This document shows, piece by piece, positions 33,997 through 63,309 of a stretch of DNA of 64,000 nt (the stretch's first letter is position 1; each line of letters begins with the position of its first letter). The DNA comes from Deltaproteobacteria bacterium (GTDB taxonomy: Bacteria > Desulfobacterota > Binatia > UBA1149 > JAJCZL01), in contig JAJCZL010000058.1 in assembly GCA_029262415.1 (NCBI GenBank), positions 135,712-199,711 of the forward strand. The letters run 5' to 3'. A model generated the notes under the pieces. It had not been told where the DNA came from. It saw only the letters and a list, made by a program, of their open reading frames with translations, and made no database searches. A program made the translations under genes and the position numbers.

Positions 33997-36327
33997 TCAG
34001 GCCGCACGTTCGACGTCGGTCACACCGTCGTCCTGCGCGCCGGGGCGGCCATAGTACCCGTAGTAGCCGTAGTAGGAGAAGCGGTCTGATCGCGTCGAAA
34101 CACGGTTGAGAACGACGCCGAGAAGTTTCGACTGCATGCGCGTCATGTAGTCGCAGGCTTGTTGCGCGACTCTACGCGGCGTCATACCCGCACGGGTTAC
34201 CAGCAGGCAACCACCACCGAGCCGGTTGCTCAGCACCGGCACATCGGCGAAGCCGAGCGTCGGCGGAGCATCAACTATGATGTGATCGTAGCGATCGTCG
34301 AGTTCGCTGAGCATCGCACCCATACGTGCAGAGTCGAGCAAATCTACCGGGTTGGGCGAAACCGGTCCTGCCGCCACGACGTCTAACCCAGGCTGGTGCG
34401 TCCCGTGGATGATCTGGTCGATCCCCATGTTACCGGCGATGTAGTTGGTAACCCCGGGCGATTGCGGGACCTCGAGCGCGCAATGAACTCGTGGCTTCCG
34501 AAGATCGCAATCGATGATAACGACACGCTTGCCCATCTGCGCAAGTGCGGCCGCAAGGTTTGTGGCAATACAGGTCTTGCCCTCGCTCGGTCGTGCACTC
34601 GTGATCAGCAACCGCGTCGGCAGACCACCTACAGCGGCGAGGAACAGCGACGCGCGTAACGTGCGGATCGCTTCGGCACCTGCCGAGGTCGGCTGCAGTG
34701 AGACTTGCATGTCCGGCGAGGTCGCCTCGCGGCCATCCTCCGCGTCTGCAACGGCAAACTCAGGCACTGTGCCGAGTACCGGCAAGCGCAAGGAACGCTC
34801 GACATCCCCAGGCGTGCTCATCGAGTCGTCCATGTACTCTTGGAAGAAGGCTAGGCCGACTCCGCCAAATAGCCCGAGCATCATCGCCATCGCCATATTA
34901 AGCGGCAAATCCGGCGTATCCGGGTTGAGCGGAACCTCGGGAATATCGACGAGGGTAATATTCGAGGACCGGATAGCCTCGGTGACCTCGACTTCTTTCA
35001 TGCGACGGAGCAGGTCTTCGTAGATCTGCCGGTTGGTATCAACCTCACGGCGCATGATCTTAAAGTCGATCGCCTTGTCTTCGTATATCTGGATGACCTT
35101 GCGCTGGCTCTCGAGTTGGAAGCGAAGCAAGGCTTCACGATCCAACGCTGTACGGAAATCCGCAGCGACGCTGGCCACAATCGTGTCGGCCTGCTCCTGA
35201 ATCGTGTTCTCGATATCGGCGATGCGTGCGTCGAGCACCTTGACCGGCGGGTACTCGGCCGTAAACCGCCCACCAAGCTGCGCGCGCTCGGCACGCGAAG
35301 TCGCCAATTCTTCTTTCAACTTACCGACCAACGGATCGTTGACGATGATCGGCAACGACCAGCGATCGGGGCCCAGCATCTGGTTGTGCAGCGCTTCCAA
35401 CTTTATGCGTTCCGACTCCCCGTTTGTCAGCCGGTTGTTGATGTCGGCAAGGCGCTCGTGGATTACCTCTTCTTCTTGGTCGATCGCGTAGATCTCACGG
35501 CCCTTGGCAAAGGCGTGGAGTTCCAGCTCTGTCTCTTCCAGCCGAGCCTTGGTGACGTCGAGTTGCTTAGAGATAAAGTTACGACCCTGCGCCGCTGCTT
35601 CGATGCGCTGGTCCAACGTCAAGTCGATGTACTCGCGCGCCATCGCATCGGCGACCTTGGCGGCGGTCTCAGGGTCGGGGTTATAAAAACTCAGCTCGAC
35701 CAAAAACGACTTGCGACGCGGTCGAACCGCGATGCTTTCACCGAACTTCTCCAGAAGTTCCTGTTCTTTCTCACGTGCGATGAGCTCAGGATCAGGCTCA
35801 CCGGAAACGATCGATTTGAGCGATGAGACCATCCTTAACACCGTCGACTCGCCCATGCTGTCGCCGTTCAACCAAGGGTCGTTTTCTAAGCCGACCTTCT
35901 CAATGGTGCGCTTGGCTAAGCGGCGACTGGCGAGCAAATCGTACTGGGTCTGAAAGAAGTCGCTGTAAGCCTGCGCGCCTTGCGAGGATTGTTCGACCTC
36001 GTCGAATCCGACCACGTTGGGTCCACCCGGACGGATCTGAAGAAGAGCTGTCGAGCGGTAAAGCGGGGTAGCTGCGAGCGTGAAAATCAGTGCACTCAGC
36101 GCACAAAAACCAAACACCGCAGCGGCTGTCCAACGCCGCCGCAAAATCACCTGCAGGAAATCCCAGAGGTGCGTCTCTCGGCCGCCGAACCCTCCTGGGT
36201 CGGCCGGCGTACCGTACGCAGGCCGGTCGCGGTCGCTGATCGTTCCGGCACGTTCCTGCGCACGGATTTCTGCCGGAACGAACATTCCCGGCGGAAGTGA
36301 GGGTGAAGTGTCCTTACGGTCGGCCAT
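33997..36327 (-). CDS. wzc: Polysaccharide co-polymerase / BY-type tyrosine autokinase (Wzc/EpsB-like)
   Basis: Wzz-type periplasmic domain, Walker A SARPSEGKTCIATNLA, DxD, C-terminal Tyr cluster SYYGYYGYYG. Start at MADRKD (36325-36327). Confidence 0.85.
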   Translation of the reverse strand: MADRKDTSPSLPPGMFVPAEIRAQERAGTISDRDRPAYGTPADPGGFGGRETHLWDFLQVILRRRWTAAAVFGFCALSALIFTLAATPLYRSTALLQIRPGGPNVVGFDEVEQSSQGAQAYSDFFQTQYDLLASRRLAKRTIEKVGLENDPWLNGDSMGESTVLRMVSSLKSIVSGEPDPELIAREKEQELLEKFGESIAVRPRRKSFLVELSFYNPDPETAAKVADAMAREYIDLTLDQRIEAAAQGRNFISKQLDVTKARLEETELELHAFAKGREIYAIDQEEEVIHERLADINNRLTNGESERIKLEALHNQMLGPDRWSLPIIVNDPLVGKLKEELATSRAERAQLGGRFTAEYPPVKVLDARIADIENTIQEQADTIVASVAADFRTALDREALLRFQLESQRKVIQIYEDKAIDFKIMRREVDTNRQIYEDLLRRMKEVEVTEAIRSSNITLVDIPEVPLNPDTPDLPLNMAMAMMLGLFGGVGLAFFQEYMDDSMSTPGDVERSLRLPVLGTVPEFAVADAEDGREATSPDMQVSLQPTSAGAEAIRTLRASLFLAAVGGLPTRLLITSARPSEGKTCIATNLAAALAQMGKRVVIIDCDLRKPRVHCALEVPQSPGVTNYIAGNMGIDQIIHGTHQPGLDVVAAGPVSPNPVDLLDSARMGAMLSELDDRYDHIIVDAPPTLGFADVPVLSNRLGGGCLLVTRAGMTPRRVAQQACDYMTRMQSKLLGVVLNRVSTRSDRFSYYGYYGYYGRPGAQDDGVTDVERAA

Positions 36328-36337
36328 GGCTACGTCT

Positions 36338-37312
36338 TCAGAGCTTTCTGTCGAAGCGGAGAATTCCGAGTGCGCGGTCAAAGAAGTACTTCGCTCCGGA
36401 CATCGGGACAACCACAACGTCGTCCTCTTGTACGAAGAAATCCTCGGCGCGCCCGTCTCGAATGGCCGCAAGCCTAACCGGGATTTTCTCACGCTGACCG
36501 TCGTCAAGCTTGCGCAACAGAACGGCACCGGAAATGTTGGCCAGTGTGAGGTCCGCGCCGCCTGCGGTGGCGACTGCCTGACTGACGGTCGTCGGTTGCT
36601 GGAGCGGGTAGGCACCGGGTTTGTTGACCATCCCTTCTACGTAGAATGTCCCGGCCTGGGGGACGTTGATCACGTCGCCCGGCACCAATGCGACATTCAA
36701 CTGCAACTCGCCGCCGCCGGTGATGCGCTCCAGGTCGATAAGTGCGGTCTCTATGCCCGCGTCCGTTTGGCGTGTTATGCGGATGTTTCGACCGGCGTCT
36801 TCGTTCAAACCACCCGCCATCGCCAGGCCTTCGAGAAGACTCTTGCGACCGCGTAATTCAAAGACCCCCGGCTGCTGGACAAACCCCACGATTGAAATCT
36901 GATAACTGCGGTACTCCTTAATGAACACCGCGACCTGAGGGTCGTGGATGAACTTCTTGTAGTGCGTGACGAGACTCCGTTCGAGTTCGTAGGAACTGAG
37001 TCCGCCCGCCTCGACCTTACCTACGAAGGGAAGCGTTACGTGGCCGACGTTGGAAACCCGCACCGGGACGATGCGCGGACCCTGGTTGTCCTCGATGTCA
37101 AAAAGAGTGACTTCGAGTAGATCTTCGGGGCCGATCTTGTACTCGCCGGCGGCCGCGGTTTGGCCGGCCATGAGTGCGATAGAGTTGTTAATCTCTGCGT
37201 TTTCATCCGCATCGATGTTGTGGTCACGGAAAGCAGGGGAGATCGAACACGCCGACACCAACCCACACACAATCGACCCGAGAAGAGCGCTGCGTACGGC
37301 TGTAGGTGTCAT
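36338..37312 (-). CDS. wza: Polysaccharide export outer-membrane lipoprotein Wza
   Basis: Lipobox LVSAC. PES motif YKIGPEDLLEVTLF. SLBB-like repeats. Confidence 0.85.
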   Translation of the reverse strand: MTPTAVRSALLGSIVCGLVSACSISPAFRDHNIDADENAEINNSIALMAGQTAAAGEYKIGPEDLLEVTLFDIEDNQGPRIVPVRVSNVGHVTLPFVGKVEAGGLSSYELERSLVTHYKKFIHDPQVAVFIKEYRSYQISIVGFVQQPGVFELRGRKSLLEGLAMAGGLNEDAGRNIRITRQTDAGIETALIDLERITGGGELQLNVALVPGDVINVPQAGTFYVEGMVNKPGAYPLQQPTTVSQAVATAGGADLTLANISGAVLLRKLDDGQREKIPVRLAAIRDGRAEDFFVQEDDVVVVPMSGAKYFFDRALGILRFDRKL

Positions 37313-38612: not shown

Positions 38613-39836
38613 TCAAGTGCAGAGCCAGGCCTCTAGCTGTGCATAGACGTCCGGGTCGGCCAACAGCTCCATATGCCCGGTCGCGGGGAAGATGCGTATG
38701 TTTTCCGGGCGGAAGCCCAGCGTACGGGCCGGGTCGTCGTGGCGCCCAATCGCGCTCGACGGATGCACGAGTCCGTCCCCAAGAAGCGTACCCGCGAGCC
38801 CTGCATGTGCGGGCGACAGGGTGCCGGCAATCGCGAAGTGCTGTGGGCCTTCGGTCAGCGGTGTTGCGCATCGGCAATCGTCGTGGCGCTCGAAACGCTC
38901 TGCACCGTTCCAATCGGCATCGACGACGTTACCATAGCGAAGGTCGGTGACGGCTGCGCTTCGAATCGCCCCAAGCCGGGCGAGCGGCGCTGTGTAGCGA
39001 CTCCAGGCCGCGAGCGCTTGGAATCGATTGCCCGCGCGTTCGAGCACCGCACCGTGGTGAGGCGTACCGAGGTAGACAGCGCAAGCGACTTTCGGCAGCC
39101 AAGCTGCACTGCTCAGCGCCGCCGCGTGGAGCGCACTGCGGATTACCAACCCGCCCAGACTGTGACCGACTAAGGTGATCTTTTTTAGCGGAACCGGCCA
39201 CTGCTCGTTCAGCTGGGTGAGCTGCCCAGCAAGGTCGTCACCGTTGTGCGAGACGTGACGGCCGCTGTTGTAGCGCAGGTAGAGCGACGTGCAGCCGAGG
39301 GCAGACGCAAGGGCGTCCCCGTGGCTATGCGCTCTACCGTCCGTACGCGTGCGCGTCCACTGCAGGTCGTTCATACATAAGCCGTGGACGAGGATGAGCA
39401 CGTGTTCGCGAGCATCCGGGAGTGTCGCCATCAACGCGTCACGTTCGAGTCGAAGCGCACGACCCCCAACTCGAAGCGACATCGAGATCGCAAGCGCATT
39501 GTCCGTGCCCTCGAGATGATCGCCGATCACGCCGTTCAAGATCGAAACGAACGGCTCGTGCGAAACCTCGTTCGAGGTGTCACCGAGGGCCTCGCCAGCG
39601 GTGTTCGACGCGACCGAGGGCGCGAGCGCGTAGCCCACACCACCGCGTAAAACTTTGTTCACGCCGCGCACGCACGCGTAAACAAACCCTGCTATCCCTG
39701 GAGCGCGCCCGCGCGGTATCGCGAGGAAAGGCGGCCATACAATGTTGCGATGCATGCCCTCGACGATGTTGGTGACACCATCGACCGCATCGAAGACCAG
39801 GCCGAGTCCGCCGCGTACTGAACCGTTGTCGCTCAT
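38613..39836 (-). CDS. Alpha/beta hydrolase (PGAP1-like lipase/esterase)
   Basis: ILVHGLCMN...GHSLGG nucleophile elbow. Confidence 0.65.
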   Translation of the reverse strand: MSDNGSVRGGLGLVFDAVDGVTNIVEGMHRNIVWPPFLAIPRGRAPGIAGFVYACVRGVNKVLRGGVGYALAPSVASNTAGEALGDTSNEVSHEPFVSILNGVIGDHLEGTDNALAISMSLRVGGRALRLERDALMATLPDAREHVLILVHGLCMNDLQWTRTRTDGRAHSHGDALASALGCTSLYLRYNSGRHVSHNGDDLAGQLTQLNEQWPVPLKKITLVGHSLGGLVIRSALHAAALSSAAWLPKVACAVYLGTPHHGAVLERAGNRFQALAAWSRYTAPLARLGAIRSAAVTDLRYGNVVDADWNGAERFERHDDCRCATPLTEGPQHFAIAGTLSPAHAGLAGTLLGDGLVHPSSAIGRHDDPARTLGFRPENIRIFPATGHMELLADPDVYAQLEAWLCT

Positions 39837-39914
39837 AGGAAGTAACAAATCCTGTCTCGCCGGCGCCAAGACAGCAAACAACTACGACAGCGAGCCTAGA
39901 TCGGCTCGCCTCCC

Positions 39915-41387
39915 TTACAGCGTCAACTCCAGCGACAGGTACCCGAAGGTGATGTCTTTGGCCGGGCCGGTCTGTTCGATGAAATCTCCGGTGAACAAGC
40001 GACTGAGCCCTAACGCAACTTTGGCATATGGACAAAGCACCTTGGTCAGCGTCAGGTCAACTTCGGTGCCGACCTCCTTTGCGCTCCCCGGTGAACCCGC
40101 GCGCACGACGGAGCCGCCTGCGTTATACAAGGCGTCTTCTTCTTCGGCGCGCCGGAAATGGTGAAGATCCGCGCGAAAAACCAGACCGGGTGCGAGAGTA
40201 ACAGTGCCGGTAAGACGGGCAGCCGCGATGTTCTGGCGGCCGACGAAATCGATGAACCCTAAGAACGCATGTCCGAGCGGAAACAGCTGGTTGAAGGTCT
40301 CAACATCGCCGTCGCCGGCTCGATCGTCACCACTTGCGTAGTCCACCCCAAGAGCGAGCCGACCGGGGTTACCGATGATCTCGACCTTGCGGCCCAATTC
40401 GACCGACCCCATATACGCGGAGATGTCGCCGGTGCCTAGATCACCAAACTGGTATGCAACCTCGGCGTCGATATCGTTGGCTCCCGAGGCGCCGTATCCG
40501 CGGGTTCCAATCGTATAGCGCTCTTCCCGACCGCTGCTGCCATTGAAAGTGGCCGTCTCGTTGTCAAGGCCGAACGCATATACGTCTACGCCTGAAGTAG
40601 TTGAGCAGCTGCGGTTCAGGTAGATACCATAAAACTCATTGTCACCAGCCTCATTGAAATCGCGGAGTTCAATTATAACCGGCTTTGTAAAAAACGCGGT
40701 TGCTTTCCACGGCCCCGAAGCGAGGTGAGCGCTGCCGCCTTCAAACGTGCGGCGCGTGTTCGACCAGTCCAACGGACTCACCAGCCGTTGTTTGCCGAGC
40801 AGTAACTCCTCACGCCCACCACGCAACGAGAGCGTGCCGCCGGCAATCGGTGTCGTGTACTCGACGAAACCGTTTTGCAGATCGAGGTAGTCTGCCTCGA
40901 GACTACGGCGACCACCGGGGAGATCGCGCCCCGACGCGAGCGCGGTTTTGGCCTCGACAAACACCCGCCAGTGCTCGCCGATGTGGAGATCGGCATGGGC
41001 GAAGAAGCGGCTGAGCAGGTAAATGTCGTCGTGATTGGCCGGCGCGCCGAAGGCGAAATCTGTCCAACTCTCGATGCGCTCGCGCACCTGCCCCCCCAAA
41101 CTCAGCCACACCGTACCGCCATCGCTCAGCTCGATGTACTTAAGTTCGTCGACTCCTGCGCGACCGGAGTTCGCAAGCACCGACCAGTCCTCCTGAAAAC
41201 GCAGCTTCTTGAACTGGGGACGCTCCTCGCCGTCCCCAGGACGCACGACCGCACCAGCCGCCGACGCCGTTGCCGGTACCAATGACGCTGCGACAAGAGC
41301 GATAGCCACTAGTACGGTCAACAGAGAAAGTCGGGTGCTCACGAACGGATCACGCCGCCTTCTCCTTATCTTTTTTGCTTTTCGCAT
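39915..41387 (-). CDS. Alginate-export-family outer-membrane beta-barrel (AlgE-like)
   Basis: Signal peptide after a Lys/Arg-rich N-terminus. KYIELSDGGTVWLSLGGQVRERIESW and C-terminal aromatic residues. RBS GGAGGAGG. Confidence 0.6.
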   Translation of the reverse strand: MRKAKKIRRRRRDPFVSTRLSLLTVLVAIALVAASLVPATASAAGAVVRPGDGEERPQFKKLRFQEDWSVLANSGRAGVDELKYIELSDGGTVWLSLGGQVRERIESWTDFAFGAPANHDDIYLLSRFFAHADLHIGEHWRVFVEAKTALASGRDLPGGRRSLEADYLDLQNGFVEYTTPIAGGTLSLRGGREELLLGKQRLVSPLDWSNTRRTFEGGSAHLASGPWKATAFFTKPVIIELRDFNEAGDNEFYGIYLNRSCSTTSGVDVYAFGLDNETATFNGSSGREERYTIGTRGYGASGANDIDAEVAYQFGDLGTGDISAYMGSVELGRKVEIIGNPGRLALGVDYASGDDRAGDGDVETFNQLFPLGHAFLGFIDFVGRQNIAAARLTGTVTLAPGLVFRADLHHFRRAEEEDALYNAGGSVVRAGSPGSAKEVGTEVDLTLTKVLCPYAKVALGLSRLFTGDFIEQTGPAKDITFGYLSLELTL

Positions 41388-41841
41388 TTCGCGCCTCCTC
41401 CATCTTGGCGGGGTTGACCACCATCATCGGGCAGGTAGCGTTACGCATAACGTGCTCGGTTACGCTGCCCATCATCAAGTGCTTGAGGCCGGTGTGGCCA
41501 TGGGTGGCCATGACGATCAGGTCGGCGTCGATCTCCTGGGCAACACGGAGAATCGATTCCTCGACCGAACCCGAGCGCACCAGCACCTCGACATCCTGGT
41601 TTTTGATATGCCTGGACACCCAGCCCTCTGCCTCTTCTCGCACCTGCTGCAAGATCGCCCGATCGAGCTCGGCAGCGATCTCACCCGTCCAGTGCGAATA
41701 AGCGATCGCCATCGTCTGCTGGACGTGCAGCACGGTCAGTTTGGCGCCAGCCTGCTTGGCAAGGTGCGCAGCGAACTGAACAGCCGACCACGAAGGCTTA
41801 GACAGATCGGTGGTGGTCAGGATTCTTTTGAATTGTCTCAT
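41350..41841 (-). CDS. Universal stress protein UspA
   Basis: ILTTTDLS...DADLIVMATHGHTGLKHLMMGSVTEHVMRNATCPMMVV. Confidence 0.8.
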   Translation of the reverse strand: MRQFKRILTTTDLSKPSWSAVQFAAHLAKQAGAKLTVLHVQQTMAIAYSHWTGEIAAELDRAILQQVREEAEGWVSRHIKNQDVEVLVRSGSVEESILRVAQEIDADLIVMATHGHTGLKHLMMGSVTEHVMRNATCPMMVVNPAKMEEARNAKSKKDKEKAA

Positions 41842-41863
41842 TTTGATGCCTCCGTTTCGTTAC

Positions 41864-42697
41864 TTACCAAGTCGCGGGGTCCGCATTCTTCGCCAACAGC
41901 TTAGGGTCGAAGAGTCCGTCCTCAGGCATGGTCCCTTCCTCAAGTTCGAGGATACGTAGCTCACTTGTGCCGCCCTCCTGGACGTCGATCACACGCACGG
42001 CCATCGGCAACATCGACTTGCCGACCTGCTTAAAGTCCGAGAAGTGCTGGGTGCGCCACAGGCGGCCCGAGGGATCGAAGAAACGCCGCTCAAGCGGACG
42101 CAAGTCATGTTGATGAACCCAAGTAGTGATGCGCTTGAAGGGCCCGGCTCCGGCAGGCGTTTCGTGGAGTTCGTAGGCAGGTTGTAGCCTGTAGTTTCCG
42201 AGTCCGTGCAGTCTGACGTTTCCGCTACTGCGGGTCCAGAAACCGAGGTCAGACACCGTCAGATCGCTGCCGAGAAAGAACTGCTCGCCGCCGACTCGGG
42301 TAAGCCGACGCACGCGCCTGACCGGCGGCACGTAGCTCCAGATCTCAGGGTCACCGCCGCCAACTTCGCGGATCAACACTGCGAAGCCTTTCACTTCGGG
42401 AGGTCCGGTCAGGACGGTAAGTAACGCAGGCCCCTCGGGCAACACTTTATAGGCTTGACGGCCGGCCCACTTAACGACAACTCCGTCTCCCGAGCGTATC
42501 GTCATTTCGACATTGCGGACGCTAGGCGTCGCGGGGGCAAGGTTACGACGTAGTCCTTGTAAGATTTCGCCTAGGCCATCAGCGCCCCCAGCCGCAGCCG
42601 GCTCTGCAGCGCAAACAAAGATGGCCACCGCTGCGGCGATCACGACCCCTGCTGCGACCGCGCGGGACTTTTTCGTCGCGACATTCGTGGCTCTCAT
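41864..42697 (-). CDS. Outer-membrane lipoprotein-sorting (LolA-like fold) family protein
   Basis: Signal peptide. Family-typical length and motifs. RBS ggagg. Confidence 0.55.
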   Translation of the reverse strand: MRATNVATKKSRAVAAGVVIAAAVAIFVCAAEPAAAGGADGLGEILQGLRRNLAPATPSVRNVEMTIRSGDGVVVKWAGRQAYKVLPEGPALLTVLTGPPEVKGFAVLIREVGGGDPEIWSYVPPVRRVRRLTRVGGEQFFLGSDLTVSDLGFWTRSSGNVRLHGLGNYRLQPAYELHETPAGAGPFKRITTWVHQHDLRPLERRFFDPSGRLWRTQHFSDFKQVGKSMLPMAVRVIDVQEGGTSELRILELEEGTMPEDGLFDPKLLAKNADPATW

Positions 42698-42748: not shown

Positions 42749-42764
42749 AGCACAGCCTGTGCCA
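42749..42764 (-). promoter_or_regulatory. Sigma-54 promoter (minus-strand reading TGGCACAGGCTGTGCT; GG-N10-GC) about 40 nt upstream of the LolA-like start
   Basis: Read from sequence. Matches TGGCAC-N5-TTGC at the key positions. Confidence 0.45.
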
Positions 42765-42865
42765 GGATGGCCGCAGCAAATCCAAGCACTTACGTTCACG
42801 ATTTCCTAGCCGTGAGAAAATCTGAGCGCCGCGTATTCTTGAAAGCGAGAGAGCGAAGGGGGACT

Positions 42866-44233
42866 TCAGTCAGCGTCTATACCGAGTTCTTCGATCTTAC
42901 GATAAAGCGAGGACAACCCGATACCGAGCCGCTCGGCAGCCTGCTTCTTGTCGCCCTCGCACGCGTGCAGAATGGACGAAACGTGGTGTGACTCGTACGT
43001 GCGCATCGCACCTTTGAGTTCGTCGCCAACGTCTTCACCATGGTTGCCCGCAGCTCGCCCTGACCCTTCGACTCCGCTGGGGAGATCCTCCGAAGTCAGC
43101 CACGGCTCAGTACCGACGATCATCGCATGCTCAATCGCATTCTCGAGCTCACGGACGTTGCCCTTCCAAGGATGAACGGACAAAAGCTTGAGCGCAGCGT
43201 TATCTACACCTTGAAAATGACGATTCATTTCGGTGTTGTGGCGTCCCACCAAGAAATCCACCAGCAACGGTATGTCTTCTCGTCGTTCGCGTAGGGGCGG
43301 AATCTGAATGCCAAATACGTTGAGACGGTAGTACAGGTCTTCACGGAAAGTGCCCTCTGCGCACTGCTTTTCGAGATCCCGATTGGTCGCAGTAATGATC
43401 CGGAGATCGACTTTCTGCGGCTTGGCGGCACCGAGCGGCAGGAACTCCTTTTCCTCGATCGCGCGTAGCACCTTGACCTGCAAGCCAAGTGGCAAATCGC
43501 TGATTTCGTCGAGAAACAGCGTCCCGCCGCGTGCACGCGAGAACAGTCCCTCGCTCGACTGCTTGGCATCGGTAAAGGCACCGCGCACGTAGCCAAACAG
43601 TTGGCTTTCGAGCAGGTTCTCGGGGATCGCCCCGCAGTTGACCGGCAAGAAGATCGCATCAGCACGTGGGCTATGGCGGTGAATCGCGCGCGCCACGACT
43701 TCTTTGCCAACCCCGCTCTCGCCGGTGATGAGCACCGTCGATGACGTTCGGGCGACCTGTTCGACGCGACGCGCGATCTCGCGCGTCGCCACGCTGCGAC
43801 CGACCAAGCTATCGAAGTGATACCGGTCTTCGACTTTTCGACGCAGATCCTGGCGCTCCCAGGCCTCGCGCCGGTGCTGCAGCAGCCGTTCAACTTTGGT
43901 CAGCACCTCGTCATAGACGAGAGGCTTGAGCATGAAGTCGTGGGCACCCTCGTGCAGCGCAGACACGGCCGACTCGATACTCGCGTGCGCGGTCATCATC
44001 ACGACCAGGGTTTGTGGGTAGCTCTCGCGGATCTGCCGCAGCAAGGACAGCCCATCGACATTGGGCATCCGCAGGTCGGTGAGCACCAACTCAAAATCGC
44101 TCTGACCCAATGCAGAAAGCGCCTCGCGACCATCGACCGCGGTTGAGACGACGTGGCCCGCATCCCCAAGCACCTCGGCCAAAGCCATACGGCTGGCCGG
44201 CTCGTCATCAACTACTAAGATCGCACTCCCCAT
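42866..44233 (-). CDS. NtrC-family sigma-54-dependent response regulator (REC + AAA+ + Fis HTH)
   Basis: ILVVDDE...DLRMP. GESGVGKE Walker A. GAFTDA motif. C-terminal HTH. Confidence 0.9.
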   Translation of the reverse strand: MGSAILVVDDEPASRMALAEVLGDAGHVVSTAVDGREALSALGQSDFELVLTDLRMPNVDGLSLLRQIRESYPQTLVVMMTAHASIESAVSALHEGAHDFMLKPLVYDEVLTKVERLLQHRREAWERQDLRRKVEDRYHFDSLVGRSVATREIARRVEQVARTSSTVLITGESGVGKEVVARAIHRHSPRADAIFLPVNCGAIPENLLESQLFGYVRGAFTDAKQSSEGLFSRARGGTLFLDEISDLPLGLQVKVLRAIEEKEFLPLGAAKPQKVDLRIITATNRDLEKQCAEGTFREDLYYRLNVFGIQIPPLRERREDIPLLVDFLVGRHNTEMNRHFQGVDNAALKLLSVHPWKGNVRELENAIEHAMIVGTEPWLTSEDLPSGVEGSGRAAGNHGEDVGDELKGAMRTYESHHVSSILHACEGDKKQAAERLGIGLSSLYRKIEELGIDAD

Positions 44234-44470
44234 CGCGCTACAAATAGGCGAGGGATACGGATGAGAGTCAAGGCGTGGCATCGATCAGCTACCCAGCAAT
44301 AGGTCTGCCAGTCCACCCGGGTCTACAAAAGCACGGGTTTTGCCTGCTGTTTGTCGATCTCTAGCACCGGTTTGGATTGGGCCGGTTCTCGCATCCGGGA
44401 GAGCAGTCCGGGTGTTTTCTCAGATACCAGAAGCGAGCCGTCGATACGCTGCGTCTCGCACGCCTCGCTT

Positions 44471-44486
44471 CGGCACGGAAGCTGCA
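44471..44486 (+). promoter_or_regulatory. Sigma-54 promoter CGGCACGGAAGCTGCA (GG 44472-3, GC 44484-5) upstream of the DHOD-like gene
   Basis: Read from sequence. RBS aaggag and the ATG at 44517 follow. Confidence 0.5.
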
Positions 44487-44516
44487 TGGTAGGGGCCGAC
44501 ACCGAAGGAGTTACCG

Positions 44517-45473
44517 ATGGCGGACCTAACGACCCGTTATATGGGCGTCGACTTGGATTCCCCGCTCGTCGCCGCCGCATCCCCTGGGTCACGGACTGTT
44601 GACGGGTGCTGCGCCCTAGAAGAAGCTGGGGCCGCGGCAATCGTCATGTGCTCTCTCTTCGCAGAGTCCGTGACTGCGGTGGCGGCGGGCGAGGAAACCG
44701 ACGTCTACAGGTCCAAGAGCGGCAATTTCATCTTTGGGCCCGAGGCCTACATCGAACACCTGAGCCGTGTCGTCGAGGCGGTCGATATCCCGGTGATCGC
44801 AAGCCTCAACGTTTCGCGGCCGGGTCCCTGGGAAGACTATGTCCCGGCTATCGCGGAGGTCGGCGTCGCGGCGATCGAACTCGACGTTTACAAGATAGTT
44901 ACCGATCCCGGCTGCGACGACGCCCTGGTGCTCGGCACGTACATCGAGTGCCTACGTCGGGTGAAAACCCGCGTTGATGTGCCGGTCGCGCTCAAGCTGG
45001 CGCCCTATTTCACGAGCATGGCGGCCGCCGCCTCAGCCTTCGATGACGCGGGCGCCGACGCACTGGTCCTCTTTAACCGGTTCTACCAGCCGACCATCGA
45101 TATCGAGCACCGCACCTTATCGATGAGCTTCGATCCTTCTGATAGCGCCGACAGCCGCCTGCCGATGATCTGGATAGCCATCCTGACCGGGCAAGTACAT
45201 GCCGACCTCGCGGCTAGCGGAGGCATTGGATCGGCCGAGGACGTCATCCGCATGTTGATGGCGGGAGCCACAGTAACGCAGCTATGCTCGGCGGTCTTGC
45301 GCGAGGGCAACGGGGTGTTCCGCAAGATCCGCGCAGACCTGAGTCGATGGCTCGACAGGCACGAGTGCAACGGCGTCAAAGACGTACGCGGGGTCATGCG
45401 CATGGCGCGGCACCCCGGCGATCGTGGATATGGCCGTGAAGGCTACCAACAGATTATCAACCGTCACTGGTAG
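44517..45473 (+). CDS. Dihydroorotate-dehydrogenase-like / dihydropyrimidine-dehydrogenase-like flavin TIM-barrel protein
   Basis: DHOD-family motifs (IASLNVS, ELDVY, SGGIGSAEDV). Confidence 0.65.
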   Translation: MADLTTRYMGVDLDSPLVAAASPGSRTVDGCCALEEAGAAAIVMCSLFAESVTAVAAGEETDVYRSKSGNFIFGPEAYIEHLSRVVEAVDIPVIASLNVSRPGPWEDYVPAIAEVGVAAIELDVYKIVTDPGCDDALVLGTYIECLRRVKTRVDVPVALKLAPYFTSMAAAASAFDDAGADALVLFNRFYQPTIDIEHRTLSMSFDPSDSADSRLPMIWIAILTGQVHADLAASGGIGSAEDVIRMLMAGATVTQLCSAVLREGNGVFRKIRADLSRWLDRHECNGVKDVRGVMRMARHPGDRGYGREGYQQIINRHW

Positions 45474-45535
45474 ACGCGGCTTGTACCGAGCCGCTTTGCC
45501 AGGCAGAGTTGCTGCTACGCTGAGCAAAGGCAGCA

Positions 45536-46645
45536 GTGACCGACGCCGACAAAGACTACCCGGGCCATGCACACGCACGCGCGATCCTCGATAACGTGCG
45601 CGACGCGATTATAACCATCGATGGGGATGGCACCATCACCCATTTCAACCGGGCTGCCGAGACGATGTTTGAGCGTAAGGCCGCCGACACCATCGGCGCA
45701 AACGTCAGCGAACTGATGCCCGAGCCATACCGGAGCGAACACACCCGCTACATCGGCGCATACCGTGACAGCGGTGTACCAAAAGCGATCGGTCGCATCC
45801 GCGACGTGCACGGGCAACGTGCCGGTGGAGAAGTATTTCCGATGGAACTGTCGGTGGCAGAGGTCATCAGTGGACCTAACCCGATCTACACCGCGATCAT
45901 CCGCGACGTTACAGCGCTACGTCACGCCACAGAAGTTGTGCGCGAACGGGAGCGCCTCGCCGAGTTAGGTGCTATAGCCGCGAAACTCGTACATGATATT
46001 GGCAACCCTCTTTCAGGTTTGACCATGCGCGTCGAGCATATGCGACGCTTAGCCGATACCCCCGATGGGCTCCCGCCCGAGAAACTACGCGCGTCGCTCG
46101 ACCACGTGCGAAACGCCGCCGCATCGATGAACGCATTGATCCGCGGCTTCATGGATTTCGCACGCGGGCAGCGCTTGCAGCGCAGCAAAGTCGACATCGC
46201 GGCGTTACTCTCGGTGATCGTCGACTTGTGGGCGCCGGTTGCCGCACAATCAAACGCATCGATAGTCTTGGACACCGGACAGGGATTGCTCTTCGTGCAC
46301 GCCGATGCTGAACAGCTGCAGCGCGTGTTTCACAACTTAATTCGCAACGGCGTCGAGGCAGTGGCAGGTGGTTGCGGCAAAACCGTTCGCGTCTCGGCCG
46401 AGCTGTCCGATGGACGCGTAGCCGTCTCTGTCTGCGACGACGGTCCCGGTGTCCCGGCCAACGTCGATGTGTTTCACCTGTTCGAAACTACTAAACCCGG
46501 TGGAACCGGCATTGGGCTGGCAGTAGCCAAACAAATCGTCTCCGCACATGGCGGAACAATCTCGCACCGCCCGCGCGCGGGCGGGGGCGCGGAGTTTCGC
46601 GTCGAGTTGGCGTGCGGCGACGAGATCGAGGGCCCCAGGGCGTAA
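45536..46645 (+). CDS. PAS-domain sensor histidine kinase
   Basis: PAS domain. H-box LVHDIGNPLSG. N/G1/G2 boxes HNLIRNGVEA, DDGPGV, GTGIGLAV. Confidence 0.8.
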   Translation: MTDADKDYPGHAHARAILDNVRDAIITIDGDGTITHFNRAAETMFERKAADTIGANVSELMPEPYRSEHTRYIGAYRDSGVPKAIGRIRDVHGQRAGGEVFPMELSVAEVISGPNPIYTAIIRDVTALRHATEVVRERERLAELGAIAAKLVHDIGNPLSGLTMRVEHMRRLADTPDGLPPEKLRASLDHVRNAAASMNALIRGFMDFARGQRLQRSKVDIAALLSVIVDLWAPVAAQSNASIVLDTGQGLLFVHADAEQLQRVFHNLIRNGVEAVAGGCGKTVRVSAELSDGRVAVSVCDDGPGVPANVDVFHLFETTKPGGTGIGLAVAKQIVSAHGGTISHRPRAGGGAEFRVELACGDEIEGPRA

Positions 46646-48584: not shown

Positions 48585-48691
48585 GCCTGACCCGATGCAC
48601 GAACGGTGCCAAGCACATCTGCCCGGATTTACTGAAAAAATGCCACCCTAAGCGCATAACTTCGCTGTTCGGGCGTTGCCGTCGTGCCGCT

Positions 48692-48724: not shown

Positions 48725-48760
48725 CCCGTGGTCGCGCGTAGGCGCTCCCACGGTTTTTTT
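48725..48760 (+). terminator. GC-rich hairpin (CCGTGG...CCACGG with inner GCGC/GCGC) followed by T7, in the kdsB leader
   Basis: Read from sequence. Lies between the predicted -10 and the kdsB ATG. Confidence 0.3.
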
Positions 48761-49504
48761 ATGCCCGATTCCGGCAACGCCGCGGTCGCAGTAATACCCG
48801 CAAGGTACGGATCGACACGGGTGCCGGGAAAACCCCTGGCAGATATCGGCGGCAAGCCGATGATCGAGCACGTCTACCGCCGCACGCTCCTCGCGACAAC
48901 CCTTGACCGTGTAATCGTAGCAACCGACGACGAACGCATCGCGCAGGCACTGGACGGTATCGCCGAGGTCGCGATGACGCGCGCTGATCACCCCAGCGGC
49001 ACCGATCGCGTTGCCGAGGTCGTGATGAACCTGGAGACCGACATAGCCGTGAATGTTCAGGGGGATCTCCCGCTACTGGATCCGGCGATGATTGACGCGC
49101 TGGTCGTAGCGCTGCGGATGGATGTAACGCTGGGGATGGCGACATTGGCCGTAGCGGTGGCCAACCGTGCCGAAATCGATGACCCCTCGGTCGTCAAAGT
49201 CGTCTGCGACGCTGCCGGGCGCGCGCTCTATTTCTCGCGCGCAGCGATACCCCACCACCGTGATACAGCAGGCGGGACCGCCGGCGCACTGCACCACGTA
49301 GGTATCTATGCTTACCGTAAAGAAACCCTGCTTCGGCTCGCCTCACTGGCCCCCACACCGCTAGAGTGCGCAGAAAAACTCGAACAACTACGGGCACTTG
49401 AGAACGGTATCGCGATTGGTGTGGTGACTGTTGAGGGAACTCCGCTGGAAGTAGATACCAGCGAAGATCTGGAACGTGCGCGCGAAGCCATTACGCGTTT
49501 GTAG
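48761..49504 (+). CDS. kdsB: 3-deoxy-manno-octulosonate cytidylyltransferase (CMP-KDO synthetase)
   Basis: VAVIPARYGSTRVPGKPL... Confidence 0.85.
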   Translation: MPDSGNAAVAVIPARYGSTRVPGKPLADIGGKPMIEHVYRRTLLATTLDRVIVATDDERIAQALDGIAEVAMTRADHPSGTDRVAEVVMNLETDIAVNVQGDLPLLDPAMIDALVVALRMDVTLGMATLAVAVANRAEIDDPSVVKVVCDAAGRALYFSRAAIPHHRDTAGGTAGALHHVGIYAYRKETLLRLASLAPTPLECAEKLEQLRALENGIAIGVVTVEGTPLEVDTSEDLERAREAITRL

Positions 49505-49562: not shown

Positions 49563-52107
<2,545 letters not shown>

Positions 52108-55217: not shown

Positions 55218-56699
55218 ATGGCACTTGAGCAAAGGCTAAATCTATCGGTCAAGCAGACCCTGAATCTGCGCATGACCCCGCAACTCCGGCAGGCGATCAA
55301 AATCCTGCAGGTGTCGCGCCCAGAGCTTGAGAGCATGGTCTCAGACGAACTCTGCCAGAATCCTACGCTCGAAGAAGCCGAGGGAATGCCCGATGCGGGT
55401 GAGTATGCATCGCGCACCGGCGACATCGAGACCAGCGAGTCCGAGCCGGTCGCCGAACCCACCTCGAACGCCGACACCGGCGACTCTACCCAGATGGAGA
55501 AGATCGACTGGGACGACTACGTAGACCGCTACTCCGGTGACTTCCACGGTTCGGTTTCCGGCGGATCGGACCGCGACGACGGTCGCACGAGCATTTTCGA
55601 AAACACCGCGAAGACCGAAGAAACGCTGACCGAGGTCTTGGAAGACGAGCTCAACATTATCGCGATGAGCGAAGAAGAGCGCCGGATCGGCCGCGTGATC
55701 GTCAACAATCTTAACAGCGACGGCTACCTTTCTTGCTCGACCGAAGAACTCGCATTTATGGCACAAACCACCGTGGAGATGATCGACGAGGTTCGCGAGA
55801 TCGTCCAAGAACTCGAGCCGGTCGGCTGCGGGTGCATCAATCTACGCGAATGCCTGCTCATCCAGTTAAAGCTGCAGGGTTACGAGCCCGACGACTACGT
55901 CATTGCCATCGTCAACGGGCAACTCAAGGAACTCGAGGCACGCCGCTACGACAGGATCGCCAAGACCCTCGGCTGTAACGAAGATGAGGTCGTCGAAGCC
56001 CACAAGATCATCCGTAGCCTGGAACCCAAACCGGGCAGCAATTACGGCCAGGGCGAAACCCGGTTCATTCAACCGGACTGCTACGTACACAAAGTCGGCG
56101 ACGATCTGGTCGTCACCCTCAACGAAGAAGGGCTCCCGGCCCTGCGTGTGAGCCCGTACTACGAAAAACTCCTCAAGACCGAGCTACCGCCCGGCGATGC
56201 TCGCGGCTATATCCAGGAAAAGGTCCGTGCGGCGGTGTGGATGATCCGCTCGATCGAACAGCGCCAGCGCACCCTCCGCAAAGTCACTGAAAGCATCGTC
56301 AGCCATCAGCGCGAATTCTTCCTCCACGGTGTCCAGCATCTCAAGCCAATGGTCCTCAAGGACGTCGCCAACGACATCGGCATGCACGAGTCCACGGTTA
56401 GCCGCGCCACGTCCAACAAATACGTGCAAGTGGACCGCGGCCTCTACGAGCTGAAATACTTCTTCACCAGCAGTCTGAAGGGTACCGACGGCAGCGATTT
56501 TTCTTCTGAGAGCGTGAAGGAAAAGATCCAGGAGATCATTGGCAAAGAGGACCCGCGCAAACCTCTGAGCGACCAGGTAATCGCCGCCCAGTTGGCCAAG
56601 GAACATGTTGACATCGCACGACGAACGGTGGCCAAATACCGAGAATTCCTGGGCATACTACCGTCGTCAAAGCGAAAGAGGTATAAAGACGCAGACTGA
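55218..56699 (+). CDS. rpoN: RNA polymerase sigma-54 factor
   Basis: RpoN box ARRTVAKYRE at the C-terminus. Conserved N-terminal region. Confidence 0.95.
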   Translation: MALEQRLNLSVKQTLNLRMTPQLRQAIKILQVSRPELESMVSDELCQNPTLEEAEGMPDAGEYASRTGDIETSESEPVAEPTSNADTGDSTQMEKIDWDDYVDRYSGDFHGSVSGGSDRDDGRTSIFENTAKTEETLTEVLEDELNIIAMSEEERRIGRVIVNNLNSDGYLSCSTEELAFMAQTTVEMIDEVREIVQELEPVGCGCINLRECLLIQLKLQGYEPDDYVIAIVNGQLKELEARRYDRIAKTLGCNEDEVVEAHKIIRSLEPKPGSNYGQGETRFIQPDCYVHKVGDDLVVTLNEEGLPALRVSPYYEKLLKTELPPGDARGYIQEKVRAAVWMIRSIEQRQRTLRKVTESIVSHQREFFLHGVQHLKPMVLKDVANDIGMHESTVSRATSNKYVQVDRGLYELKYFFTSSLKGTDGSDFSSESVKEKIQEIIGKEDPRKPLSDQVIAAQLAKEHVDIARRTVAKYREFLGILPSSKRKRYKDAD

Positions 56700-59229: not shown

Positions 59230-60387
59230 ATGAGTAAAAAAGAATTCACCTTCACTTCGGAGTCGGTTTCGGCGGGGCACCCCGACAAGCTTTGCGACCA
59301 GGTTTCCGATGCAGTTTTGGACGCCTACCTGGCCCAGGATCCCGACAGTCGCGTCGCGTGCGAAACCCTCGTCGCGACCAACCTGTGCGTCGTCGCCGGT
59401 GAGATCACCAGCAAGGGCAAGGTCGATCACGAAGCACTCATCCGCCGTGTCGTCGCCGAGATCGGGTACGTCGGCGTAGACGGTTTCGACGCCGATGCAA
59501 TCAGCATTTTTGTTCGCCTCGGCAAACAATCGCCCGATATTTCTCAGGGTGTCACCGTCGGACAAGGCAGGCACGAAGAACAAGGCGCCGGCGACCAGGG
59601 GCTGATGTTCGGTTACGCTTGCAACCAGACGCCCGAGCTAATGCCGCTCCCGATCGCTCTCTCGCACCGCCTCACGCACCGCATGCACGAAGCACGTGAG
59701 TCCGGAGAGGTCGGCTACTTGAAACCGGATTCGAAGAGTCAGGTGAGCATCGACTACGTCGATGGCAAGCCGAAACGAATTTCGACGGTCGTCATTTCAT
59801 CACAACACGCCGACTCAGCATCGAATGAAGAGATCCACCGCGACATCAGCGAGAAGATCATCAAGCCGGTGCTGCCGACCGAACTAGTTGACGCCGAGAC
59901 CGTCATGCACATCAACCCGACTGGACGCTTCGTCGTCGGTGGCCCCACCGGAGACTGCGGGCTTACCGGTCGCAAAATCATCGTCGATACCTACGGCGGC
60001 TGGAGCCGACACGGCGGAGGTGCATTCTCGGGCAAGGATCCGTCTAAAGTCGATCGCTCGGCCGCGTACATGGCCCGATATCTAGCCAAGAACGTGGTCG
60101 CATCGGGCCTCGCAACCGACTGTGAAGTGCAACTCGCATACGCGATCGGTGTAGCACAGCCGGTATCGGTCCTCGTCGATACGTTCGGGTCGAGCACGCT
60201 TGCTGCCGAGGCAATCTCGGCCAAATTGCGTGAACACGTAGACCTCCGCCCCGCCTCAATCGTGGAGCGTTTTGAACTGAAGCGCCCGATCTACCGTCCA
60301 ACCGCAGCCTACGGGCATTTCGGCCGAGAGGCCGTCGACGGCCTCTTCCCGTGGGAAAAAACCGATCTGGCATCACAACTGGGCTGA
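59230..60387 (+). CDS. metK: S-adenosylmethionine synthetase
   Basis: [13 protein letters not shown]...[19 protein letters not shown]. Confidence 0.95.
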
Positions 60388-60488
60388 TCTCGATCCGCCT
60401 GGATTGGCAGTTCGACACAATCGAAACCGTCGCACTTACGCGGCATATCGTCGCGCATAGGCGACTAAGTAAGGAAGAGAGTACTAAG

Positions 60489-61769
60489 ATGGCAAAAGCG
60501 AAATCGCATCACGTCAAAGACACCAAACTGGCAAAAGCAGGCAAGAAGCGCGTCGATTGGGCGGCGCGCGACATGCCGGTTCTGAGTGCTATAGCCGAGC
60601 GATTCAGGAAGGAGAAGCCCTTCCGCGGCAGCAAGATGTCGGCCTGCATGCACGTCACCGCCGAAACCGCCAACCTTATGCGCACGCTGAAAGCGGGAGG
60701 TGCCGACGTTGCGTTGTGTGCATCAAATCCCCTCACCACGCAGGACGACGTAGCTGCGAGCCTCGCCGTTGACGACAAGGTCGCCACCTATGCGATCCGC
60801 GGCGAGGACAGCAAGACTTACTACTCGCACCTGCGACTGGTGATCGAGCGTGGGCCACAGCTCACCATGGACGACGGTGCCGATCTCGTCAGCCTCTTGC
60901 ACACCGATCTCGCCAAGTACGCGCCCGCAGTTCGGGCGTCGATGGAAGAAACCACGACCGGCGTCATCCGCCTCAAAGCGCTGGAGAAGGAAGGCAACCT
61001 GACCATCCCCGTGATAGCCGTCAACGACGCCGACACCAAGCACATGTTCGACAATCGTTATGGTACCGGCCAGTCGACGCTCGACGGTATCATCCGCGCA
61101 ACCGACGTTTTGTTGGCCGGTAAGACCGTCGTCGTCGTCGGTTACGGCTGGTGCGGACGCGGCGTCGCCTCACGAGCGGCCGGTATGGGTTCCCACGTGA
61201 TCGTGACCGAGGTTAACCCGATTCGCGGCTTGGAAGCCGCCATGGACGGCTATCGCGTAATGCCGATGGCGAAGGCCGCCAAGGAAGGCGACGTTTTCAT
61301 CACCGTGACCGGCAACCGACACGTGATTGCCGGCCAGCACTTCGCCGTCATGAAGCACGGCGCGACGGTCTGTAACTCGGGCCACTTCGATCTCGAGATC
61401 GACCTGGTCGCGCTCACCAAGCAGGCCAAGCGTATCAACCGCAACGTCCGTAACTGTGTCGATGAGTACATAATGAAGGGCGGCAAATCGATCTACGTCC
61501 TGGCCGAAGGCCGTCTCGTCAACCTATCGGCCGCCGAGGGCCACCCGGCATCGGTAATGGACATGAGCTTCGCAACGCAGGCGCTCGCCGCCGAGTGGGC
61601 GATACGCAAGTCGGCAAAGGGTAGTCTCGAGGTCAAGGTGCACGACGTGCCTGAATCCATCGAAGCAAGCGTCTCAACGCTGAAGCTCGCAAGCATGGGT
61701 TTCAAGATCGACAAGCTTACCCCGGAACAAAAAGAGTACCTGGCGTCCTGGACGATCGGAACCACCTGA
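60489..61769 (+). CDS. ahcY: Adenosylhomocysteinase
   Basis: NAD-binding GYGWCGRG and conserved C-terminus. ATG at 60489 with RBS aaggaag. Confidence 0.95.
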   Translation: MAKAKSHHVKDTKLAKAGKKRVDWAARDMPVLSAIAERFRKEKPFRGSKMSACMHVTAETANLMRTLKAGGADVALCASNPLTTQDDVAASLAVDDKVATYAIRGEDSKTYYSHLRLVIERGPQLTMDDGADLVSLLHTDLAKYAPAVRASMEETTTGVIRLKALEKEGNLTIPVIAVNDADTKHMFDNRYGTGQSTLDGIIRATDVLLAGKTVVVVGYGWCGRGVASRAAGMGSHVIVTEVNPIRGLEAAMDGYRVMPMAKAAKEGDVFITVTGNRHVIAGQHFAVMKHGATVCNSGHFDLEIDLVALTKQAKRINRNVRNCVDEYIMKGGKSIYVLAEGRLVNLSAAEGHPASVMDMSFATQALAAEWAIRKSAKGSLEVKVHDVPESIEASVSTLKLASMGFKIDKLTPEQKEYLASWTIGTT

Positions 61770-63108: not shown

Positions 63109-63123
63109 AGCAACAGCCGTGCC
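63109..63123 (-). promoter_or_regulatory. Sigma-54 promoter (minus-strand TGGCACGGCTGTTGCT) upstream of the TadG-like gene
   Basis: Read from sequence. Matches TGGCACG-N4-TTGC at 11 of 12 defined positions. Confidence 0.45.
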
Positions 63124-63309
63124 AACCAAGCATCATTCGGTGGCGGCAACATCCGCCCCGCGCTAGAGCCCGCTTCACCGCGGCATCCGTCGCGTATTCC
63201 GTGACACCAAGCCGTTCTCCGCCGGAACGCATGCTCGACCACCAAGAGTCTGTGGGGTGAATTGTTCGTCGGGTGTCACTGCGGCAGCAACTGAGGCATG
63301 GGTAGCCTC

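Follow-up and report, generated by a model that had tools for sequence, protein, structure and literature searches.

The rhizobial sensor kinase FixL is active in its deoxy state, and its distal arginine forms a hydrogen bond with bound O2. In the nifR3(dusB)-ntrB-ntrC operons of alpha-proteobacteria, a flavin TIM-barrel gene is co-transcribed immediately upstream of the gene for a PAS kinase that partners an NtrC-type activator. In E. coli and Salmonella, ZraR controls the divergent sigma-54 promoters of zraP and zraSR (PMC4987338). NmpRSTU of Myxococcus xanthus is a heme-based O2-sensing pathway in which an NtrC-like activator uses paired dyads upstream of sigma-54 promoters and targets its own operon as well as universal stress protein (Usp) and cbb3 oxidase genes (PMC11841059). 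The locus analyzed here lies in a 64,000-nucleotide stretch (the window) of contig JAJCZL010000058.1, which belongs to a bacterium of the Binatia. It includes the gene for an NtrC-type bacterial enhancer-binding protein (bEBP), referred to as the activator, and, on the opposite strand, genes for a dihydroorotate dehydrogenase (DHOD)-like flavoprotein and a PAS kinase. We consider it fairly probable that these genes, with the promoters around them, form a self-amplifying two-component switch that operates via sigma-54 and would most likely respond to low oxygen.

Predicted sigma-54 promoters and tandem dyads

A preliminary description of this DNA had proposed a REC-AAA-HTH activator divergent from the DHOD-like and kinase genes, and the Pfam domains agreed with it; the start codon of the activator needed correction. 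The open reading frame (ORF) as listed (42866-44281, - strand) includes the Response_reg, Sigma54_activat and HTH_8 domains. Since the gene caller chose position 44233 and all orthologues begin with MAxSILVxDDE at that point, translation most likely starts at Met17 of this ORF (44233) and not at 44281. The revised gene (42866-44233, -) codes for a 455-amino acid NtrC-type protein with a receiver (REC) domain, an AAA+ domain and a Fis-type helix-turn-helix (HTH). On the other strand, the DHOD-like gene (44517-45473, +; 318 amino acids, Pfam DHO_dh) starts with the ATG at 44517. The kinase gene (45536-46645, +; 369 amino acids, Pfam PAS, HisKA and HATPase_c) is separated from the DHOD-like stop codon by 62 nt, where the preliminary description had estimated 60 bp. 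No terminator-like or sigma-70-like sequence was found in this 62-nt gap. The rpoN gene, coding for sigma-54, was correctly placed about 10 kb downstream; it is located at 55218-56699 (+), includes Pfam Sigma54_AID, Sigma54_CBD and Sigma54_DBD, and stands in its usual lptB-rpoN neighborhood.

Putative sigma-54 promoters were scored against the consensus TGGCACG-N4-TTGCW, which has 12 specified positions and GG-N10-GC as its canonical register, and the transcription start site (TSS) was placed 12 nt after the C of the -12 element. The element that had been proposed for the DHOD-like/kinase operon, CGGCACGGAAGCTGCA (44471-44486, +), was confirmed in its sequence, coordinates and spacing. It coincides with the consensus at 10 of the 12 positions, and its GG (44472-73) and GC (44484-85) have the canonical GG-N10-GC spacing. 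It ends 30 nt ahead of the DHOD-like ATG with the Shine-Dalgarno sequence GAAGGAG in between, so that a transcript starting at the predicted TSS (about 44497) would have a 20-nt leader containing GAAGGAG. Two other elements were found on the opposite strand. One of them, TGGCAGACCTATTGCT (44295-44310, -), is a candidate promoter of the activator gene with a predicted TSS at about 44284 and a 51-nt leader. The other, TGGCACAGGCTGTGCT (42749-42764, -; predicted TSS at about 42738), precedes a putative operon that includes LolA-like, Usp, porin and esterase genes. Neither this second regulated operon nor the candidate promoter of the activator was part of the preliminary description.

The number of matches to the consensus did not exceed chance. 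A scan of the window allowing up to two mismatches produced 11 matches where 11.9 were expected, and six sites with intact GG and GC and at least 10 of the 12 positions were found where 5.4 were expected. Plain counting of -24/-12 consensus matches was therefore rejected as stand-alone evidence, and the support for the promoters rests on their context. Five of the six sites are directly upstream of a correctly oriented ORF, and three of these are clustered around the activator gene, at 42749-42764(-), 44295-44310(-) and 44471-44486(+). What goes beyond chance is the placement of the elements, their conservation in related loci and their coupling to a conserved enhancer.

Only one syntenic lineage was found, in three samples (loci L082, L092 and L093). 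The gene order is that of the window, with the activator divergent from the DHOD-like and kinase genes and the TP_0789-like (LolA-like) and Usp genes alongside. The DHOD-like protein, the kinase and the activator are 60%, 53% and 68% identical to those of the window. The intergenic DNA of the window and that of this lineage are unalignable, yet all three -24/-12 elements have counterparts. In L082 and L092 the counterpart of CGGCACGGAAGCTGCA is TGGCATCCGGTATGCA, which is separated by 24 nt from the GTG start of the DHOD-like gene. In L092, TGGCAAGATCGTTGCT (9797-9812, -) is located upstream of the orthologous activator gene and TGGCATGACTTGTGCT (6904-6919) before the TP_0789-like gene. The sequence CTAGTGG follows both TGGCACAGGCTGTGCT in the window and TGGCATGACTTGTGCT in L092.

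Two more loci, L098 and L096, include activators 64-65% identical to that of the window. In L098, orf112 is followed by the activator gene and the DHOD-like gene, these two overlapping by 4 nt, and then by genes for a 182-amino acid 4Fe-4S protein and for enoyl-CoA hydratases; two Usp genes lie divergently, and a FixL-like kinase with two PAS domains is encoded 5 kb off on the other strand. In L096 (1689-9588), the activator gene is followed by genes for a molybdopterin subunit (1164 amino acids), Fer4_11, EB_dh, a NarJ-like protein and a DHOD-like protein, and then by the gene for the 182-amino acid 4Fe-4S protein also seen in L098. This is an operon of the type II dimethyl sulfoxide (DMSO)-reductase family (Nar/Nxr/Pcr/Ebd-like), in which EB_dh is the heme b subunit and the DHOD-like gene is embedded. 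A kinase gene was not visible in the L096 locus. The operons that contain the DHOD-like gene are headed by -24/-12-like elements in both cases, CGGCAAGGATGTTGCA in L098 and TGGCTCCGCTATTGCT (1642-1657) in L096. The preliminary description had tied its promoter to the conservation of the GG/GC spacing in orthologous loci, and this spacing is kept in L082/L092, L098 and L096. Usp genes are co-located with the module in three lineages. It was also observed that multiheme cytochromes and a Rieske/cytochrome b complex adjoin the module in L092 (1-6750); this respiratory context is absent at the corresponding position of the window.

A scan of the intergenic region for dyads that could serve as upstream activator sites had been recommended, and two such dyads were found at 44386-44401 and 44417-44432. 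A first inverted-repeat scan detected nothing beyond shuffled controls. When four upstream regions were compared by ungapped k-mers, nothing beyond shuffles emerged either save one marginal 14-mer, which was later recognized as the distal dyad. A Gibbs search of seven upstream regions from four lineages then uncovered a 16-bp dyad, TTCYC-N6-GRGAA, with an information content of 15.5 bits compared to 12.0-12.7 bits in eight shuffled sets. The distal dyad, TTCTCGCATCCGGGAG, agrees with the motif at nine of the ten half-site positions and is centered at about -103.5 from the predicted TSS of the DHOD-like/kinase operon; the proximal dyad, TTCTCAGATACCAGAA, is centered at -72.5, 31 bp from the distal one. 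A second tandem pair, at 42803-42818 and 42836-42851, is found at the LolA-like promoter, with the dyads 33 bp apart and centered at -72.5 and -105.5. Dyad pairs are also present in L092 (9875 and 9906; 6774 and 6805) and L098 (6285 and 6316; 5727 and 5760), and L096 has one strong dyad and a half-site. The centers are at -73.5/-104.5 at the L092 DHOD-like promoter, at -74.5/-105.5 at the L098 promoter of the activator and DHOD-like genes, at -74.5/-107.5 at the L098 orf112 promoter and at -108.5 at the L096 promoter.

The whole window contains only two dyad pairs at 31-33 bp spacing, both upstream of these promoters. Shuffled sequences had a mean of 0.22 pairs, and two or more pairs occurred in 2% of 200 shuffles. 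Pairs with this spacing are likewise found only upstream of these promoters in L092 and L098, and no dyad pairs were found in three loci with paralogous kinases. The independent part of the enhancer evidence is the spacing of the pairs, their geometry and their exclusivity. By this computational analysis, putative upstream activator sites are present in the range of about 70-150 bp, and three lineages share their geometry. The activator orthologues have an invariant HTH recognition helix, LSSLYRK, which fits a shared DNA site.

Two other sites found in the promoter scan are located away from the module. A perfect sigma-54 consensus, TGGCACGGCTGTTGCT (63109-63124, -), ends 23 nt before a TadG-like/VWA gene (61802-63085; Pfam Tad and VWA) and probably serves as a separate, sigma-54-dependent promoter for an Flp/Tad pilus; no TTCYC dyad pair is found at this site. 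Another element, TGGCACCGTTCGTGCA (48596-48611, -), is followed after only 11 nt by the ATG at 48584, the start of a 231-amino acid ORF with no match in Pfam or NCBIfam. If real, this promoter would imply a near-leaderless transcript or a mis-set start codon.

The kinase, the activator and the signal

Judged by its sequence, the kinase is a soluble FixL-type heme-PAS sensor kinase with a single PAS domain. Residues 12-129 match the crystallized heme domains of BjFixL and RmFixL in the PDB with E values of 1e-27 to 1e-24, the best matches being 2cmn and 1dp6 (E=1.6e-27). FixL is also the best NCBIfam match, at 202 bits and below the 850-bit equivalog cutoff. In the alignment, His69 corresponds to the proximal His200 of BjFixL and Arg89 to the distal Arg220; both are invariant in 12 homologues, and Tyr72, Tyr76, Met103 and Leu105 align to heme-pocket residues. 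Of the 120 best homologues of the kinase, 114 keep the LMPxP...H motif. The presence of a FixL-type domain with the proximal histidine and the distal arginine identifies the PAS domain as a predicted sensor of the heme and not of the flavin type. The phospho-acceptor is predicted to be His153.

By analogy with FixL, the kinase probably senses oxygen. The FG-loop Arg206, which in FixL couples the heme propionate and the state of the ligand to the kinase, is replaced by Ala75 in the window kinase and its closest relatives; 38 of 120 homologues have Arg and 36 have Ala at this position. Because of this substitution, ligand affinity or signaling may differ from those of FixL in this subclade. It is then conceivable, and in our judgment unlikely, that the ligand is NO, CO or the redox state of the heme and that the same sigma-54 wiring serves as a nitrosative- or redox-stress switch. 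It is established that heme-PAS domains bind O2, CO and NO, and the activator that precedes the molybdopterin/Fer4_11/EB_dh/NarJ-like operon in L096 could tie the system to respiration of nitrogen oxides or oxyanions. However, the distal arginine that forms the hydrogen bond with O2 in FixL is invariant, and the Usp genes and the association of the DHOD-like family with pyruvate:ferredoxin oxidoreductase (PFOR) fit hypoxia equally well. The choice of ligand is beyond discrimination by sequence alone, and oxygen is kept as the probable signal in what follows.

There is no FixJ-type gene (REC plus LuxR-type HTH) in the locus, and the adjacent regulator is the activator. The helix of the dimerization and histidine phosphotransfer (DHp) region, RERERLAELGAIAAK/GLVHD, is near-identical in the window and L098 kinases and different in paralogues that are paired with single-domain REC proteins. 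This supports the activator as the predicted partner of the kinase. Single-PAS FixL-like kinases with 45-48% identity were considered as candidate orthologous loci and rejected, because their pairing with single-domain REC proteins makes them paralogues. The matches listed in a metagenome scan with the DHp region included two paralogous kinases with two PAS domains in unrelated contexts.

The activator matches Sigma54_activat (4.9e-68, 228 bits), Response_reg (2e-29, 102 bits) and HTH_8 (3e-8, 34 bits), and it has D53, the Walker A motif GESGVGKE and the Walker B motif FLDEI. Asp53 is the predicted phospho-acceptor. It belongs to a large and tight group of orthologues of about 450 amino acids, in which identities to the window protein range from 59 to 68% among the 119 other best homologues; several come from metagenome-assembled genomes of "Candidatus Binatia" or of delta type, or from other uncultured lineages. 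The NCBIfam equivalog cutoffs for AtoC (435 vs. 714 bits), NtrC (407 vs. 559) and ZraR (341 vs. 760) were missed. These scores place the activator in an unnamed orthologue group that matches no named bEBP equivalog.

The sigma-54 contact loop of the window activator (residues 218-223) reads GAFTDA, with Tyr in place of the preceding His. The loop is GAFTGA in 93 and GSFTGA in 26 of the 119 other closest homologues, so that GAFTDA is unique to the window. The variant may reflect lineage-specific tuning or a weakened contact with sigma-54. It is listed as tolerated and is found in functional-looking bEBPs of Desulfovibrio (PMC4641369). If the loop of this protein, the only one of its kind among the 120 closest homologues, had taken the activator off sigma-54, another bEBP could serve the promoters; or the -24/-12 match could be fortuitous or the promoter dead, with a sigma-70-type promoter in its place. 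The chance-level frequency of the motif in the window is compatible with these possibilities, and so is the crudeness of the promoter scans, in which the sigma-70 consensus used may not be that of the host. With this reservation, no sigma-70-like promoter was found between 41200 and 47300, where 1.2 were expected. The position and spacing of the element are kept in four lineages in DNA that is otherwise unalignable, the geometry of the dyads at -73/-105 is fixed, and the Desulfovibrio proteins suggest that GAFTDA may be compatible with function. On this balance we regard a fortuitous or dead promoter as highly improbable, and sigma-54-dependent transcription as the better account of the locus.

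The DHOD-like protein and the surrounding genes

The DHOD-like protein matches NCBIfam PRK07565 (NF005741) over residues 1-315 with 317.9 bits, above the cutoff of 303, while its scores against the PyrD equivalogs are far below cutoff (87 vs. 269 and 72 vs. 270 bits). The catalytic residue of DHODs is a Cys (class 1) or a Ser (class 2) in an N-x-S-C/S-P-N loop. In the alignment, the SCPN of this loop corresponds to TDP, and Asp130 is nearly invariant in the family. Identity as a true dihydroorotate dehydrogenase (PyrD) was rejected because the catalytic residue is absent and the PyrD scores are so low. An AlphaFold2 model (pLDDT 88) was most similar in Foldseek to the FMN domain of dihydropyrimidine dehydrogenase (DPD) and to class-1 DHOD (A/B), with TM scores of about 0.7 and 16-21% identity. 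According to this model, the protein is an FMN TIM-barrel of the DHOD/DPD fold in the PRK07565 family.

A profile search of genome contigs with the DHOD-like alignment found only relatives with 36-45% identity, at 80 loci (L002-L081). In 69 of the 80 genomes the PRK07565 gene is directly downstream of, and on the same strand as, a PFOR/nifJ gene of about 1200 amino acids; the phyla include Cyanobacteria, Acidobacteriota, Bacteroidota, Verrucomicrobiota and Chloroflexota. This association is a strong and apparently uncharacterized functional link, and no paper discussing it was found. A weak bEBP or kinase match was present in only four of the 80 loci, and the arrangement of the window in none. 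In Synechocystis, nifJ-sll0743-sll0744 form one transcription unit that is induced by microoxia (PMC11368403); sll0744 is likened here by its annotation as "DHOD" and not by assignment to PRK07565. Homologues of about 50% identity (Dadabacteria-type) are located beside thioredoxin-like, SnoaL and short-chain dehydrogenase/reductase (SDR) genes, with no regulator nearby.

The preliminary description saw in this gene an odd passenger that could provide the PAS domain with a redox or flavin signal. Neither idea held up well. The gene stays linked to activator orthologues in L098 and L096 and is linked to PFOR elsewhere, and the PAS domain is of the FixL-type heme class (BjFixL, E=1e-27) with no LOV- or flavin-type signature. 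A role as a source of flavin or redox signal, or as a co-sensor in the manner of ZraP- or GlnK-type partners, would agree with the adjacency and apparent co-transcription of the DHOD-like and kinase genes in two lineages. Moreover, accessory proteins are commonly encoded beside kinases, and the protein is without an assigned substrate. However, in L098 the DHOD-like gene has its overlap with the activator gene, and the kinase is encoded on the other strand at a distance of 5 kb; in L096 the DHOD-like gene is inside a respiratory-enzyme operon; and the PFOR-linked members of the family in 69 of 80 genomes have no kinase nearby. We therefore give very little credence to a signaling role. Because the gene is linked to activator orthologues in L098 and L096 without an adjacent kinase, and because of the PFOR association, the protein is most likely a conserved member of the regulon, a predicted output with the role of a low-oxygen redox enzyme.

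The second set of genes preceded by a promoter and a dyad pair is on the other side of the activator. It comprises genes for a LolA-like/TP_0789-like lipoprotein (41864-42697, -), a Usp (41350-41841, -), an Alginate_exp-type porin (39915-41387, -) and a DUF676 esterase-like protein (38613-39881, -), all identified by Pfam and gene calls. Since these genes are on the same strand and closely spaced, the region 38613-42697(-) is considered a putative co-regulated operon. Beyond it, one flank of the module consists of an exopolysaccharide export cluster that includes a Wzc-like tyrosine autokinase (33997-36615) and a Poly_export/SLBB protein (36338-37312). The other flank has a kdsB-like gene (48728-49504), pyrG (49590-51263) and further ORFs, and then rpoN, downstream of which metK and ahcY are located at 59230-61769. 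An Rfam scan of the whole 64-kb window detected no family at the gathering threshold. The exact proteins of the window are present in one NCBI and one Logan assembly.

The proposed switch and its relation to known systems

We propose the following sequence of events. With its heme unliganded, i.e., at low O2, the kinase would autophosphorylate on His153, as the analogy with FixL suggests, and the phosphate would be passed to Asp53 of the divergent activator, with which the kinase shares a conserved linkage. The phosphorylated activator would then bind the two dyads, which are three helical turns apart at about -73/-104, and the active AAA+ ring would assemble there. This ring would open the sigma-54 closed complex at CGGCACGGAAGCTGCA and a transcript including the DHOD-like and kinase genes would start at about 44497. 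The same arrangement would drive the LolA-like/Usp/porin/esterase operon from 42749-42764(-), and the shared dyads would probably also drive the activator gene from 44295-44310(-). Because in this scheme the promoters of both genes answer to the activator, the kinase and the activator would each be under the control of the pathway to which they belong. Positive feedback on the kinase, as the preliminary description had envisaged, thus follows from the architecture, and the activator gene is probably subject to it as well.

Several points weigh against this scheme. L082, L092 and L093 count as a single independent comparison because their intergenic DNA is identical, and the gene orders of L096 and L098 differ from that of the window. 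The -24/-12 motif is not enriched in the window, as described above, and the predicted leader of the L092 DHOD-like gene is only about 14 nt, with the start inside the Shine-Dalgarno sequence. The distance between the activator promoter and the dyads varies, from -110/-141 in the window to -96/-127 in L092, and because this geometry is not conserved the activator promoter is the least certain of the three. The dyad motif was derived from the same regions in which it was then counted, and single dyads with one mismatch are not enriched across the window (18 vs. 22 expected). To these are added the alanine at the Arg206 position and the GAFTDA loop. Finally, we infer every functional step from sequence and comparative evidence.

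If the scheme is correct, its coupling to sigma-54 would provide tight off-states, and auto-activation of both components could result in switch-like behavior. FixL-type heme sensing would not be tied to FixJ-type outputs, since coupling to sigma-54 would be possible. The -24/-12 element and the two dyads at -73/-105 constitute a testable cis-regulatory code. A more general hypothesis can be put forward tentatively: uncultured Binatia- and delta-like bacteria may possess a conserved low-oxygen regulon in which a FixL-type kinase signals to a bEBP instead of FixJ, with a TTCYC-N6-GRGAA tandem enhancer at -73/-105 and PRK07565 as its signature target. The module would then tie the PRK07565 family to low-oxygen regulation, consistent with its PFOR association elsewhere. 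If this is true, this orphan family would be a hypoxia-induced and probably ferredoxin- or Fe-S-linked reductase, which gives a handle on its substrate.

Compared to FixL/FixJ, the kinase shares the heme-PAS homology, the proximal His, the distal Arg, most pocket residues and the HisKA-HATPase_c region, and it is soluble, as is BjFixL. The differences are that it has only one PAS domain and an Ala at the equivalent of Arg206, that the partner is a sigma-54 bEBP and not the LuxR/NarL-type FixJ, and that the predicted output is through -24/-12 promoters and not through a FixK cascade. A search of open-access text for FixL together with NtrC or sigma-54 turned up no description of a FixL-bEBP pair. 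The flavin TIM-barrel protein NifR3 of the nifR3-ntrB-ntrC operons is a tRNA-dihydrouridine synthase (Dus) and not a PRK07565 protein; in these operons ntrC is part of the same transcription unit and the signal is nitrogen status via PII. The nifJ (PFOR)-DHOD-like pairs of cyanobacteria and many other phyla include the same DHOD-like family as the window, with 40-45% identity. However, there is no PFOR gene in the window, and the nifJ loci are without a kinase or bEBP.

The system most similar in architecture is ZraP/ZraSR (HydHG) of E. coli and Salmonella, which has an NtrC-type activator, divergent sigma-54 promoters in one intergenic region, regulator sites in that region and positive autoregulation. 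Unlike in ZraSR, the kinase and activator genes flank the intergenic region on opposite sides and are not in one operon. The predicted sensor is a cytoplasmic heme-PAS protein, in contrast to the periplasmic metal/envelope-stress sensor of ZraSR, and the co-regulated protein is a cytoplasmic flavoprotein, whereas ZraP is a periplasmic chaperone.

In logic, the closest system is NmpRSTU, with which the module would share heme sensing that leads to an NtrC-like activator, autoactivation and a Usp target. The Nmp sensor, however, is a globin-coupled kinase that signals via a second hybrid kinase as part of a relay of four components. NmpR recognizes GCGCA-N5-TGCGC with about 14 bp between sites, compared to TTCYC-N6-GRGAA with 15 bp between dyads in the locus described here. 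Because of this difference in binding site, identification of the activator as an orthologue of NmpR was rejected. No DHOD-like gene is reported in the NmpR regulon (PMC11841059). The module is internally consistent, and its parts are of known types; the combination is undescribed and comprises an enhancer code defined here for the first time together with a conserved, uncharacterized target enzyme. Current concepts are not overturned by it; known designs are extended.

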